A stretch of 23,072 nucleotides of DNA from an uncultured virus (IMG/VR IMGVR_UViG_3300023179_000063) (lineage: Duplodnaviria; Heunggongvirae; Uroviricota; Caudoviricetes; Crassvirales): the IMG/VR virus record IMGVR_UViG_3300023179_000063; one strand, given 5' to 3'. The notes beneath the pieces were generated by a model. The model searched no databases. It worked only from the letters and a program-made list of their open reading frames with translations, and was not told the origin of the DNA. The position numbers and the translations under genes are program-made. How positions within the stretch are numbered: the stretch's first letter is position 1; each line of letters begins with the position of its first letter. Shown here piece after piece: positions 6,645 through 22,244 of the stretch.

Positions 6645-6905
6645 TTAAAACTTATATTTATTCTTTGCTTCAGGTGTTGACCAATAATTTTTATAATTTC
6701 TATTAGCACAATATTGCCACAACCTATCTAATTCTTCTTGAATAAAATAATCATCATCTATTTCTTTTTCCAACTCTGTTTCTACATCTTCTAAATCTAA
6801 ACCTAAATGTTGACTAAATCCGATGATTATTGTTACTGTTGAGTTACGGTTACCATAATCAAATGATAGTTCATTTTCATCAATAAATTTTCTTAATCTG
6901 TTCAT
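6645..6905 (-). CDS. Small protein, possibly a primase C-terminal (PriCT-like) helical domain
   Basis: GNRNS motif, helical; adjacent to the Prim-Pol gene. Confidence 0.45.
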   Translation of the reverse strand: MNRLRKFIDENELSFDYGNRNSTVTIIIGFSQHLGLDLEDVETELEKEIDDDYFIQEELDRLWQYCANRNYKNYWSTPEAKNKYKF

Positions 6906-7765
6906 ATTTTATATTTCCATTTATATTCTCCTGTTTTTTTTCGTTTTCCAGTGCAAACAGAAGAAATGTTTTTATTATTTAATTTTAATTGCCTTGAAGC
7001 TTCCATTACACTACACCATTCCTTTATAAAATTACCATCTAAATCATATTGTAAAACAATTTTAGAATTAACTTTAATAAGTTTTTGTTTATTAGATTCT
7101 GACATTTTTAATCTATTACTATTTTTACTCATTTTCAATTTTGTTTCTTCAGATAATTTTTTACCTTTATTTGCTATAGATAATTTTAATCTAGTTTCTG
7201 AAGAAACTTTATGTCCTAAAAATCTTTTAGATAAATTTTCACAAAATTCTTTATTTCGTTTTTTACCTTTATTTTTTAAAGAAATTTGAAATTTAAGTTC
7301 TTCAGATCTGTTTTTAACTGCTTCTCCTATTTTTCTTTTTGTAATATCAGACATTGGTGGTCTTTTTTTATTAGAAATACTCATTTTTTGTTTAGATTCA
7401 TTAGACATCTTTCTTCCAATTTGCCAAGAAGACATTTTTTTTCTAGTTTCATCACTAACAAAATTATATTTATCTCCTAATTTAGGTAATTTACAATTTA
7501 AATTTTCAGGTTCTAATACATTAAATCCAAAACCTATTAAAGTTTCATATTTTAACATTTCTTCAATAGGACCTTCCCATATTATTTCAAATTTATGATT
7601 ATTGAAACCATGTTTATTAAAAGAATTATACAATTTAATTTGAGATTTTCCTAAAGTAGATTTATAATGTGTAATTCTTCTTTTAAAATTTATTGTAGAA
7701 CCAATGTAAATTTTATTACTAGGACTGGTGATCATGTAAATTATTCCATTTTTAATATTTGTCAT
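6902..7765 (-). CDS. Free-standing GIY-YIG homing endonuclease with NUMOD3-type repeats and C-terminal NUMOD1-type HTH
   Basis: GIIYMITSPSNKIYIGST..R..E; about six repeats like SDETRKKMS/SEETKLKMS; VLQYDLDGNFIKEW..EASRQL..ISSVC..YKWKY. Confidence 0.92.
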   Translation of the reverse strand: MTNIKNGIIYMITSPSNKIYIGSTINFKRRITHYKSTLGKSQIKLYNSFNKHGFNNHKFEIIWEGPIEEMLKYETLIGFGFNVLEPENLNCKLPKLGDKYNFVSDETRKKMSSWQIGRKMSNESKQKMSISNKKRPPMSDITKRKIGEAVKNRSEELKFQISLKNKGKKRNKEFCENLSKRFLGHKVSSETRLKLSIANKGKKLSEETKLKMSKNSNRLKMSESNKQKLIKVNSKIVLQYDLDGNFIKEWCSVMEASRQLKLNNKNISSVCTGKRKKTGEYKWKYKI

Positions 7766-17142: not shown

Positions 17143-17774
17143 TTATAATATTATAAGTAAAGGTAATAATAAAGTAAAACAATACCTAATTGTATTCCAA
17201 TTAATTATTTTATCATGTAATTCTACAAAAGATTTTATAAAATCACTTTTTAAATTATGTTTATATCTAATATTTTTACCACCATATTGTGATATTTTAT
17301 CTTCTTGTATAGTAGGAACCCATAAATATTCTTCTTCACCAGTAATATTATTAGCTAAATTATATTTATGTTTATTTTCATTATGAGTAAGAAATATAAC
17401 TTCAGCTTTAACTACATCTTTATAATCAACATAATCATTAATCATTTTAAATAAATCTTCATATTCTTCTAGCCAATTACCTGCAACTATTACAGGACTA
17501 AAATTAATATGTACATCATAACCAGCATCTATAAAAGCATCAATAGCTTTAATCCTATCAATAATTTTAGATGTATTAGGTTCTAATTTATCAGACATAA
17601 TTTGAGGCATTAAACTAAATCTAATTCTAATTTTACCTTCAGGATTATAATCTAATAAATTTACATTAACATATTTAGTAGCAAAAGAACCCATAGCTAT
17701 AGGATGTTGTTTAAAGAAATCAAATATCTTTTTCCATTGATGATATTTTAAATGTAAAGCAAAATCTTCGTTAC
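17143..17774 (-). CDS. splB: Spore photoproduct lyase-like radical SAM protein, exon 2
   Basis: Frame continues upstream of the track ORF as NEDFALHLKYHQW; FATKYVN, RIRFSL, EPNTS..RIKAI, GYDVHINFSPVI, YGGKNIRY. Confidence 0.88.
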
Positions 17775-17942
17775 CATTTTGTTACCTTATAGGTTCTTTA
17801 TCCTATAAATCTACACTTTTTATTAAGTTATATGTGTAGTTCAGACTATATCATCATGTAAATTAATACATGCCCTGCACTCGTGTCACTTTACTATCTT
17901 CAGCTTTATCTGTTAAGATTCCATGTGTTAGTCGTTGAACCT

Positions 17943-18713
17943 TCAGTGTATTTCTACAAAGCTTGGCTGCTGATTGTCTGCTTCCAGAGTTTCCAGCAAT
18001 TCACAGGGTTTAACATCTTTAATAGATGTGGCCATAATTTCTATTACTTTATTTTTATTAATACAATTATTAAAAGCTTCTGTATATCCTCCAAATTTAG
18101 GTCCTATATATTTATTATTTTTAAACATATTAATAATATATTGTTCTAAATAATAAGCTTTATATAGTGGTAAATTTAAAACATTTAAAACTTCTACTGC
18201 TAAAGAACCAAATCTTGATTTTATATATCTTCCTTTATAAAGACCTATTTTATAAGCATTTACTGTTGGTAAATAAACAAAATATAATTTATAAGGTGTA
18301 TGTGGTGTTCTTAAAACTGTTGTTTTATTTATACCCTTATTATCTTTATAAAAGTTGTTACATATACCGCATTTGTAAATATCATGCAATCTTCTATTGT
18401 ATAATGTATTACAATTATTACATTTATATTTGATACATGTTAAATAGTTTACATATAGAGATAATGCTGTAAAATTATATTTTAAACATAATTTTTTAAG
18501 TCTAAATTCATGATAAGATGTTGTATTTCTAGTAGGAATTTTATTTCTTTGTCTAAGTCCACTCCAAGTTGCTTTTGTTAAAAAACCTGAAGTTTTGTGT
18601 TTAAACAAAAGATAAGTTTTTGCATCTTTATATTCATTTATCCATTCAAAATCTTGATTATCAGCAATTTGCTTAATTGTATTAATAATTTCTTCTTTAG
18701 TAAAATTTTTCAT
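17943..18713 (-). CDS. Intron-encoded putative homing endonuclease: N-terminal repeats/zinc ribbon, C-terminal GIY-YIG-like (T5orf172-type) domain
   Basis: CNNC/CGIC; LYFV..YKIG..R..LEQ..GYTEAF; ATG at 18713 preferred over TTG at 18719, which lies inside the promoter box. Confidence 0.75.
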   Translation of the reverse strand: MKNFTKEEIINTIKQIADNQDFEWINEYKDAKTYLLFKHKTSGFLTKATWSGLRQRNKIPTRNTTSYHEFRLKKLCLKYNFTALSLYVNYLTCIKYKCNNCNTLYNRRLHDIYKCGICNNFYKDNKGINKTTVLRTPHTPYKLYFVYLPTVNAYKIGLYKGRYIKSRFGSLAVEVLNVLNLPLYKAYYLEQYIINMFKNNKYIGPKFGGYTEAFNNCINKNKVIEIMATSIKDVKPCELLETLEADNQQPSFVEIH

Positions 18714-18716
18714 ATA

Positions 18717-18747
18717 CAAATATAATAAATTTTTACATAAAGGTCAA
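18717..18747 (-). promoter_or_regulatory. Intron-internal Bacteroidota-type promoter
   Basis: TTG (18747-18745), 20-nt spacer, TATATTTG (18724-18717), 3 nt before ATG. Confidence 0.68.
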
Positions 18748-18768
18748 GTGTAATAGTGACATTTATTT

Positions 18769-19024
18769 AGCCAATATCATAAGTTATAAACTTTTCATGT
18801 GTTTGATTAGGTTTATCTACATTTGTAAAATAAGAATGGTTATTAATAGCTGTAAGAATATCTTCTGTATTAGTAGCTATTGATAACCCTTCATATTTAT
18901 TTCTTTTCATATAACAATAAGAACAATTAAACATACAACCATGTCCAAAACTAGGACTAATAAAATCTGTACTTCTACCTGATGGTCTAATAAGCATAGA
19001 TTTTCTTATAACTTTTTCAATCAT
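18769..19024 (-). CDS. splB: Spore photoproduct lyase-like radical SAM protein, exon 1
   Basis: GCMFNCSYCY radical SAM CxxxCxxC; ends YDIG plus first base of the Cys codon. Confidence 0.88.
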
Positions 19025-21399: not shown

Positions 21400-21597
21400 T
21401 TATTCAGGTTTAGTAGGTAAAAACCAATGAGTTACATTTGTAAGCATTGTAGAACGAAATTCATCTTCTTGAAGAAGAAACCATTCATTATTTTCTAAAT
21501 AGGCTTCTTGCCAATTTTGACCATATTTAGCATTATTCCAAACAACTACTATTTCACCTTCTTTAGGTAATTTATCTTTTACATTTATCCAATTCAT
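21400..21597 (-). CDS. DUF551-like phage protein
   Basis: MNWINVKDKLP...VTHWFLP..P. Confidence 0.8.
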   Translation of the reverse strand: MNWINVKDKLPKEGEIVVVWNNAKYGQNWQEAYLENNEWFLLQEDEFRSTMLTNVTHWFLPTKPE

Positions 21598-21602
21598 AAT
21601 TT

Positions 21603-21689
21603 TTATTCTCCTAATATTTTATGAAACATTTTTATTAAATATGGTTTTATTATTTCCCATATTATTATTGTTAAAATTATTATTATCAT
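21603..21689 (-). CDS. Possible 28-aa membrane peptide (MIIIILTIIIWEIIKPYLIKMFHKILGE)
   Basis: Fills the gap between terminator and DUF551 gene; low-complexity AT-rich DNA. Confidence 0.35.
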   Translation of the reverse strand: MIIIILTIIIWEIIKPYLIKMFHKILGE

Positions 21690-21701
21690 ATATTTATAAA
21701 T

Positions 21702-21730
21702 AAAAAAAAGGAAGCTGCATCTTCCTTTTT
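21702..21730 (-). terminator. Intrinsic terminator downstream of the tmRNA, possibly bidirectional
   Basis: AAAAAGGAAG-ATGCAG-CTTCCTTTTTTTT on the minus strand. Confidence 0.75.
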
Positions 21731-21787
21731 AACCCTTAATTTAAACAATTTATTATGAAATTTCCTATTATGCAGAATAGGTTTTTG

Positions 21788-22143
21788 TGGAGCATAGGGG
21801 AGTCGAACCCCTGTCCAGTTAGCTGCTGAATAACAACTTAACTACGAATAATAGATTATTTATTTCTTCTATAAAAGAAAGGGCTGACCGATAAAAGTCA
21901 ACTATCACCAATTAGTTTTAAGTTCTAATAAACTTAGCTTATTACTAAGCTGCAATCAACATTTCTTCTTCTTGTCTAATTAAGTTGAAGATTTTTGCTT
22001 CTACTGCATCAGCAAAATTCCTAGAATTTTCTGATATTGTATTTGTTTTGTCGTTTATTTTTTGATATACATTTACAAGTATAATATCATCCTTGTCGTA
22101 ATTGTTATTTGGCTGAACACTCCTGTCAATACCTAGATGCCCC
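21788..22143 (-). ncRNA. ssrA: tmRNA (transfer-messenger RNA), CCA end not encoded
   Basis: Acceptor GGGGCAT/ATGCTCC with G3-U wobble and discriminator A; GGTATTGAC D-loop analogue; T arm AGGGG-TTCGACT-CCCCT after GGAC; helix 2 AATAACAA/TTGTTATT; pseudoknot 1; tag frame ending LIAA TAG TAA TAA; 356 nt. Confidence 0.95.
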
Positions 22144-22244
22144 AATTTTATTAATTAAATAATGTTTGTTTCAAAAAGTTTTGTATTTAACAAATTAGTA
22201 ATTTTTTTAAATGATTAATAATTGTAATTAACTTGTTATAAGAT

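Follow-up and report, generated by a model that had tools for sequence, protein, structure and literature searches.

A phage-borne one-piece tmRNA gene with a predicted tag of 35 residues in a low-GC lake phage

Trans-translation is usually seen as host housekeeping, in which transfer-messenger RNA (tmRNA, gene ssrA) supplies a short host-specific degradation tag, usually of about 10 residues. Here we examine a tmRNA gene on the minus strand (positions 21788-22143) of a 23,072-nucleotide (nt) stretch from an uncultured virus (IMG/VR record IMGVR_UViG_3300023179_000063), called the window below, which most likely encodes a tag of 35 residues. Long tags of 27 residues occur in Mycoplasma where, as Gur and Sauer in 2008 and Ge and Karzai in 2009 reportedly found, they are degraded by Lon and the extra length matters for recognition. 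Mycoplasma tags end in FA or FAY. They share with the window's tag a length far over 10 residues, and they offer a model for a degron of 35 residues, but they are not known to resemble it in sequence and the window's tag ends in IAA.

Phage tmRNAs are already in print. They are described for mycobacteriophage Bxz1 and its relatives and for Bacillus phage G, while that of mycobacteriophage DS6A is reduced to little beyond the tRNA-like domain (PMC4131195). ARAGORN detected a tmRNA in 402 of 18,146 phage genomes, among them that of Melnitz, whose gene is in two pieces, and tmRNA genes are named there as well-known phage attachment sites (PMC9004378); huge phages with both tmRNA and SmpB are described as well (PMC7162821). 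The roles put forward in print are sustaining of the hijacked translation machinery or recycling of amino acids. Tag lengths of "8 to 35 aa" have been given, and pseudoknots 2 to 4 (PK2-PK4) are described as dispensable and not conserved (PMC11431127). In the literature searched, with subscription journals outside its scope, no paper was found on long phage tmRNA tags or on phage clpP-ssrA linkage. Like the published phage tmRNAs, the gene in the window is a complete ssrA in a lytic-type phage genome with no integrase nearby, and it is a one-piece gene whereas that of Melnitz is in two pieces. Given that phage tmRNAs and tags of up to 35 residues are known, the window holds an unusual variant and no new kind of system. 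The reading we prefer, with a probability of about 0.68, is that of a functional phage-encoded tmRNA whose 35-residue tag would still be a degradation signal for a host AAA+ protease.

Identity and core structure of the tmRNA

The RNA was tested with the Rfam covariance model RF00023 (cut-off 47 bits), and its regions were folded by minimum free energy. The model matches positions 21785-22143 of the minus strand with 56.7 bits (E 5e-20) over its full length (1-374 of 374). Positions 21788-22143 are a one-piece tmRNA, in agreement with the preliminary description of this DNA, which had proposed a tmRNA of normal total length; indeed, the mature RNA measures 356 nt without the CCA. The CCA itself is absent from the gene, the sequence running ...CUCCA-CAA. 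The elements of the core are the following.

21788..22143, minus strand: one-piece tmRNA (ssrA) gene, 356 nt to the discriminator A, Rfam RF00023
22137..22143, minus strand: 5' strand of the acceptor stem, GGGGCAU, pairing with AUGCUCC at 21789-21795 and including G3:U70
21812-21796, minus strand: T-arm AGGGG-UUCGACU-CCCCU, read directly and by Rfam, with the GGUUCGAnUCC motif
21795-21789, minus strand: 3' strand of the acceptor stem, followed by the discriminator A at 21788
22063..22096, minus strand: pseudoknot 1 (PK1), with stem 1 formed by ACAAG (22096-22092) and CUUGU (22079-22075) and stem 2 by UGAUAU (22089-22084) and AUAUCA (22068-22063)
21830..21848, minus strand: 3' strand of the long helix 2, pairing with 22096-22109 (AAUAACAAUUACGA) in the minimum-free-energy fold, a helix also closed in the Rfam alignment

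The stems were compared among 26 related tmRNAs, four of the window's own lineage and 22 of a sister family described below. In the MAFFT alignment the 5' end of the window lineage is shifted by one column; pair counting on the alignment was therefore dropped and the strands were counted from the sequence ends by script. The acceptor stem occurs as nine different strand pairs, every one fully paired, with G3:U70 kept in 26/26, and the T-stem shows six variants, all paired; both stems covary across these relatives. The two stems of PK1 are present exactly as the preliminary description had them, their coordinates having been re-derived, and stem 2 is placed by Rfam on the PK1 stem of the model. 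In the sister family PK1 has a like architecture with another sequence (AGUGCU/AGCACU and AGAUU/AAUCU).

With the canonical one-piece tmRNA of the E. coli type, the window's RNA shares the tRNA-like domain with G3:U70, PK1, a resume codon about 10 nt past PK1 in a context of U-A-x-x-C followed by G, a tag end of Ala-Ala, stops in helix 5 and a length of about 360 nt. It differs from it by 35 encoded residues rather than about 10, an Asp resume codon, an unencoded CCA, its location in a phage and a PK2-PK4 region squeezed into about 82 nt of short hairpins.

Resume codon and reading frame of the tag

Judged from the sequence, the resume codon is GAC and the tag is most likely 35 residues long, given the canonical context of this codon, the position of the stops in a hairpin and the homology of codons 1-14 to the tags of 25-26 residues in the sister family. 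The elements of the coding part and of the region behind it are listed below.

From PK1 to the resume codon, minus strand: spacer AAAAAUAAAC, 10 nt, read directly
22050..22052, minus strand: resume codon GAC (Asp), preceded by UAAAC, 10 nt past PK1, on the Rfam consensus resume codon
21948..22052, minus strand: tag frame DKTNTISENSRNFADAVEAKIFNLIRQEEEMLIAA, 35 codons, followed by TAG TAA TAA at 21947-21939
22009-22034, minus strand: hairpin inside the tag frame, CAGAAAAUUC-UAG-GAAUUUUGCUG, RNA positions 110-135, codons 6-15, 10 base pairs (bp) with one bulge
21936..21951, minus strand: stop hairpin (helix 5) AGCUUA-GUAA-UAAGCU, holding the stops TAG TAA TAA
21854..21935, minus strand: shortened PK2-PK4 region, 82 nt, RNA positions 209-290, three short hairpins in the minimum-free-energy fold

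The resume context is of the type U-A-x-x-C before G. ARAGORN reads the position homologous to this GAC as the resume site in L090 and L091, and in L141 the sequence ahead of the resume codon is almost identical (AUCAAAAAACAAAC before GAC). The choice of GAC at 22052 made in the preliminary description is therefore upheld by the canonical context, the Rfam alignment and the site called in relatives; the frame of 35 residues, which it had seen to run into TAG TAA TAA within the hairpin AGCTTA-GTAA-TAAGCT, is likewise present in every part. When the 105 coding bases were put through 20,000 mononucleotide shuffles, a stop-free frame of 35 codons arose by chance in 690 (3.5%), and the other two frames over these bases contain three stops each. 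The predicted tag is 3-4 times the usual length and acidic (net charge -3), and its C-terminus, -MLIAA, ends in IAA rather than LAA.

Conservation of the long frame, which the preliminary description had proposed to check in relatives, gave a mixed picture. The frame is whole in 4/4 distinct DNA copies and in contigs of four RNA libraries, all nearly identical, with the conservative changes N23S and I25V as the only ones of the tag in the three other DNA copies and in the contigs of the four RNA libraries; the nearest divergent relatives, on the other hand, stop after 25-26 codons. Given that all copies of the window's type are nearly invariant, codons 15-35, the last 21, have no comparative support.

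It is in this part that the frame might be read otherwise. A GCA at codon 19 (AKIFNL), in the same frame and preceded by UAGAA, would give a tag of 17 residues if translation resumed there, and this upstream context presumably resembles that of E. coli. Alternatively, the coding part may be decaying, with the tRNA-like domain left to titrate SmpB, a state of which the DS6A tmRNA, reduced to near this domain (PMC4131195), provides an example. The missing comparative support for the distal codons and the hairpin over codons 6-15 would suit such an explanation. However, the distance from PK1 and the Rfam alignment favour GAC, codons 1-14 have homologues in a family whose tags ARAGORN reads from this very position, and all 35 codons are open with the triple stop in its usual hairpin. 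A mere decoy for SmpB, moreover, would need neither PK1 nor helix 2, and both are intact. We consider a later resume codon or a decaying coding part clearly unlikely. Furthermore, an open reading frame (ORF) of 66 codons at 21945-22145 was considered as a protein gene and rejected, since Pfam gave no match for it and stops interrupt its upstream portion in the sister family.

Behind the stop hairpin, three mini-pseudoknots had been proposed in the preliminary description. The region is indeed compact and folds into three hairpins, and the first can form a convincing pseudoknot of clean H-type geometry (AAGUU/AACUU and AUUAG/CUAAU, 5 + 5 bp, loops of 1/0/4 nt), but the other two are doubtful. 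Their proposed loop pairings are of 4 bp and sterically tight. For the second hairpin (21902-21883), which also came up in the search that detected the terminator-like hairpin described below, a natural variant G>A at 21889 turns U-G into U-A and keeps the hairpin, while another, A>U at 21903, disrupts the loop pairing proposed for it; in the third, the second stem is not convincing.

Related tmRNAs and the phage setting of the gene

Relatives were searched with a pattern made of the 5' strand of the acceptor stem, the D-loop GGUAUUGAC and the T-loop. This pattern matched a single contig, that of G001, in 185,579 species genomes, and among metagenome contigs it matched six, of which L102 and L104 belong to the window lineage. 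This lineage consists of four distinct copies (the window, G001, L102 and L104). A sensitive search of the tmRNA region against a collection of 50,697 phage records matched only 31 bases of the tRNA-like domain. The remaining pattern matches and wider scans of viral contigs make up the sister family of 22 distinct tmRNAs, with tags of 25-26 residues of the form DNDFIVSENFL.E.....GE.AVA. The D-loop GGUAUUGAC is common to the window and the sister family, and so is the start of the tag, D-x-x-x-x-[IV]-S-E-N-x-x-N/D-x-A, over which codons 1-14 align. The shared positions are D1, [IV]6-S-E-N9, N12 and A14, with the nucleotides shared as well (xUA UCA GAA AAU).

The codon positions were analysed in 18 distinct sister tags of 25 codons, leaving out three tags of 26 codons and the four rows of the window lineage. 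At codon positions 1/2/3, 12/11/20 of the 25 sites are variable and the entropies are 0.37/0.32/0.67, and the other two frames are closed in 18/18 and 17/18 of the tags. Since the third positions vary most and the other frames are closed, the sister-family tag is, to judge by its codons, a translated peptide under selection. By homology this pattern supports the resume codon and the frame of the window for codons 1-14; it is silent on codons 15-35, which only the window lineage has.

In a maximum-likelihood tree the window lineage lies outside the sister clade (support 97/99) on a branch of 1.36 changes per column, and the kinship of the two is hence distant. Given that only codons 1-14 are alike, that the tag has 35 residues, that no clpP lies nearby and that the lineage falls outside the clade, the window's tmRNA is, on sequence comparison, a distant relative and not a member of the sister "SEN" family. 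The two have in common the D-loop, the tag start, the resume context, the unencoded CCA and a long tag, whereas the tag of the window exceeds those of the sister family by 9-10 residues and the PK2-PK4 region is smaller in the window's RNA. The polymerase of the window has no match in 5/5 sister-family records, which is uninformative, all of these being fragments that are 15-23% complete.

The GC content is about 25% along the whole window, whose tightly packed genes lie on one strand. In PHROG and Pfam scans of its proteins we found a family-A DNA polymerase, a primase, a DnaB-like helicase, a RecT-like protein, a SNF2-type helicase, homing endonucleases and a glucosaminidase, and no SmpB, protease, adaptor or integrase in the 23 kb. 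The replication genes lie on one flank of the tmRNA, which adjoins the SNF2-type helicase gene, and small ORFs lie on the other. In L096 (2535-2607) and L097 (1283-1457), one or two tRNA genes, one of them for tRNA-Gln, stand at the place that the tmRNA occupies in the window. Their helicase is 80% identical to that of the window and the sequence further upstream is also common. As these helicase relatives share the upstream sequence and hold tRNAs at this place, the tmRNA site is a variable slot for RNA genes with phage DNA on both sides.

The nearest genome, G001, carries a copy of the tmRNA that is 97% identical, on contig C10 (26,211 bases; L106 and L107). This contig bears genes for a large terminase and a portal, which are all that PHROG scans of 21 of its ORFs returned. 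The values for the GC content of its early arm, which holds the tmRNA, are 26-27% and 25-31%, those for its late arm are 36-42%, and the contig as a whole is at 33%; five other contigs of the G001 bin are at 55-63%, about 30 points away. Furthermore, neither G001 nor 30 of its relatives yielded a further RF00023 match over the cut-off. The contig is a phage contig binned by mistake into a bacterial bin, and since it is mis-binned, the relatives of G001 are uninformative on the host.

A bacterial ssrA, taken up as host DNA at the edge of a prophage or joined by a chimeric assembly, might also be envisaged, as tmRNA genes are known phage attachment sites (PMC9004378) and as a near-identical copy lies in the bacterial bin of G001. 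Yet phage DNA of about 25% GC lies on either side, the upstream flank being common to phages with tRNAs at this place, and no integrase is near. In addition, the G001 contig has a terminase and a portal and a GC content about 30 points off its bin, RF00023 finds nothing else in G001 or the 30 relatives, and in the 185,579 species genomes the acceptor, D-loop and T-arm pattern matches the G001 phage contig only. We regard this origin as extremely improbable. The tmRNA gene is phage-borne and lies in the early, replication arm of a low-GC lake phage.

As for the phage itself, the completeness of a related phage record of 63.6 kb is rated at 72%, from which the genome of the window's phage may be estimated at about 90 kb; ClpP and SmpB were not found in this 63.6-kb record. 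The best matches of the window's polymerase are crAss-like phages, at only 27-30% identity. The motif TANNTTTG, which we take to be the -7 promoter motif of Bacteroidota, occurs 41 times in the window against 46 expected and gives no host signal.

Several other features of the window were noted. A radical-SAM gene resembling spore photoproduct lyase is split (18767-19024 and 17143-17694, minus strand) by an insertion with an endonuclease ORF at 17943-18719, and bases 17780-18013 (234 bases) match, at 77% identity, the region of the intron-encoded HNH endonuclease in crAss-type phages; this piece was all that Megablast of the whole window against phage records returned. Rfam, at its thresholds, found no group I intron in the split stretch, which in the G001 contig is replaced (window 17143-19024) by a shorter one. 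A GIY-YIG/NUMOD homing endonuclease gene (6902-7765, minus strand) lies inside the replication module, and a DUF551 ORF (21400-21597, minus strand) separates the helicase gene from the terminator of the tmRNA.

Two transcription signals flank the tmRNA.

21705..21730, minus strand: terminator-like hairpin and T-run, 58 nt past the tmRNA 3' end, a 10-pair stem followed by TTTATTTATA
22145..22174, minus strand: sigma-70-like promoter match TTGAAA-18-TAAAAT, 10/12 matches, abutting the mature 5' end

Two terminator-like sites were found against 0.2 expected in shuffles. Lake or freshwater RNA libraries, from 14 studies, account for 18 of the 20 public runs listed with part of the stretch. In 4/4 runs examined, from four studies, contigs cover the tmRNA. 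A contig of 398 nt spans 21789-22186; it lacks a single base at the mature 3' end and reaches 43 nt upstream beyond the 5' end, and another extends upstream past 22300; no contig of the four runs covers 21650-21788. The promoter match is too near to G1 to give the 43-nt leader of the first contig, hence transcription probably starts further upstream. The cover is consistent with a stable RNA that is transcribed with a leader and trimmed at the 3' end, and is to be taken as a hint only.

Possible fates of tagged proteins, and partner genes

According to the preferred reading of a functional phage-encoded tmRNA, the RNA would be transcribed with a leader and trimmed at both ends, and the CCA would be added by the host. 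Host alanyl-tRNA synthetase would charge it with alanine via G3:U70, and it would pair with host SmpB, given that no smpB is seen in the phage DNA available. The tmRNA may then enter ribosomes stalled on broken or stop-less mRNAs, which should abound during infection. Translation would resume at GAC, the chain would gain Ala and 35 residues ending in -MLIAA, and the ribosome would be freed at the triple stop. The C-terminal Ala-Ala is an end of the ClpXP type, and our best guess is that the degron would be read by a host AAA+ protease, with the long upstream part perhaps adding contacts, as in the Lon-dependent tags of Mycoplasma. The gain for the phage would lie in recycled ribosomes and amino acids.

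Several observations weigh against this reading. ARAGORN, a check named in the preliminary description, made no tmRNA call in the window in a standard or a local run, and with a relaxed threshold it returned only a spurious permuted call. This silence counts little, however, because the same local run missed 3/5 sister-family loci with tags of 25 residues; a limit on tag length in the program may be the reason. The last 21 codons stand without comparative support, the nearest divergent relatives have the shorter tags described above, and the long branch in the tree sets the window lineage apart from the family that supports its frame. A 10-bp hairpin in the 5' part of a tag frame is unusual for a tmRNA, and in the sister family only a weaker hairpin is possible at this site. 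Moreover, RNA libraries may contain DNA and their contigs cannot show true RNA ends.

The sister-family records bear on another fate for the tagged proteins. They are fragments of jumbo phages with genomes of about 360 kb, one of 368,549 bases being rated complete and the others scaling alike. We take them to be phages because of their IMG/VR and CheckV labels and because a T4-type dNMP kinase, a phage metallopeptidase and a homing endonuclease are encoded close to the tmRNA; Terminase_6C had no match in 5/5 of these records. In 10/10 jumbo-phage records, clpP directly precedes the tmRNA on the same strand, and in one of them a homing endonuclease stands between the two.

clpP followed by tmRNA: L195 (G035:C1:218000-228000), L196 (G033:C1:57000-67000), G032, G034, G036 and G040-G044

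A dnaJ, tRNAs and a release-factor-like gene also lie near the tmRNA of these phages. A phage smpB is found in 3/5 sister-family records and a Clp/Hsp100-type ATPase, with an open frame of about 850 residues, in 2/3. From their gene content, the jumbo phages carry a near-complete kit for rescue and degradation, whereas the phage of the window, as far as its DNA is seen, has only the RNA and lacks the partner genes clpP, smpB and Clp ATPase.

Long tags are found elsewhere as well. Other tmRNAs of viral contigs have tags of 21-28 residues according to ARAGORN, and one viral contig of 46.6 kb (L115) has a possible tag frame of 43 codons, DDNLGTKADIYGKSAIWDLIALSQNYQVIEDGVAHTELVFATN, by manual reading, with no ARAGORN call. 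Some crAss-sized contigs, for their part, have ordinary tags of 8-9 residues or a permuted tmRNA gene. A permuted (two-piece) tmRNA is common to ten viral contigs of 35-123 kb (L040, L042, L043, L046, L047, L049, L051, L052, L053 and L055); the tag of L040, the only one of the ten on which ARAGORN was run, is GNTSYVTDYTRLVA, and L053 also has a RAGATH-9 RNA match. Ordinary tags such as GNTSYRVAA occur in L041, L044, L045 and L050, beside tRNA-Arg genes.

It might be that rescue occurs and that the long tag gives the protein a fate decided by the phage, such as another protease or adaptor, sequestration or a flooding of host proteases. The tag of the window, at 3-4 times the usual length, with a net charge of -3 and an IAA end, would accord with this, as would the recurrence of long tags (21-43 residues) in viral-contig tmRNAs and the conservation of the sister-family tag as a peptide. 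The pairing of the sister gene with clpP (10/10), smpB (3/5) and the Clp/Hsp100-type ATPase (2/3) points to tags tuned to machinery chosen by the phage. In the phage of the window, however, no protease, adaptor or smpB is present in the 23 kb, the scans of 21 ORFs on the G001 contig gave only terminase and portal, the related 63.6-kb record yielded neither ClpP nor SmpB, and the C-terminal Ala-Ala is the classical ending. The clpP pairing makes a phage-chosen fate plausible for the sister family, and nothing in the window's phage supports it. The preliminary description had suggested that an extra helix in the tag could redirect rescued proteins to another adaptor or protease, or that the RNA could stand in for a host tmRNA cleaved by defence nucleases; both remain conjectures on which the window itself offers no evidence. 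For the tag of the window we hold such a fate to be rather unlikely, and the preferred reading remains that of a degradation signal for a host AAA+ protease.

A wider proposal, which we put forward tentatively and hold to be doubtful, is that long tags of 21-43 residues are a phage adaptation. There would be tmRNA lineages restricted to phages, with tags selected as peptides, in which jumbo phages pair the RNA with their own ClpP, Clp ATPase, SmpB and DnaJ, and the 90-kb-class phage of the window would keep the RNA alone, its tag grown to 35 residues and steering truncated proteins to a phage-chosen fate. If this were true, targeting to a host protease or adaptor or saturation of proteolysis would be the main purpose, rather than quality control.

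ARAGORN was the survey tool in PMC9004378 and PMC7162821. Since it misses the gene of the window and several of its relatives, published counts of phage tmRNAs may under-represent forms with long tags. The tag described here is a ready test object for which protease or adaptor reads it and for whether the extra residues matter. Together with the clpP, smpB and Clp ATPase neighbours in jumbo phages, the tmRNA of the window suggests that phages tune ribosome rescue and the fate of unfinished proteins.

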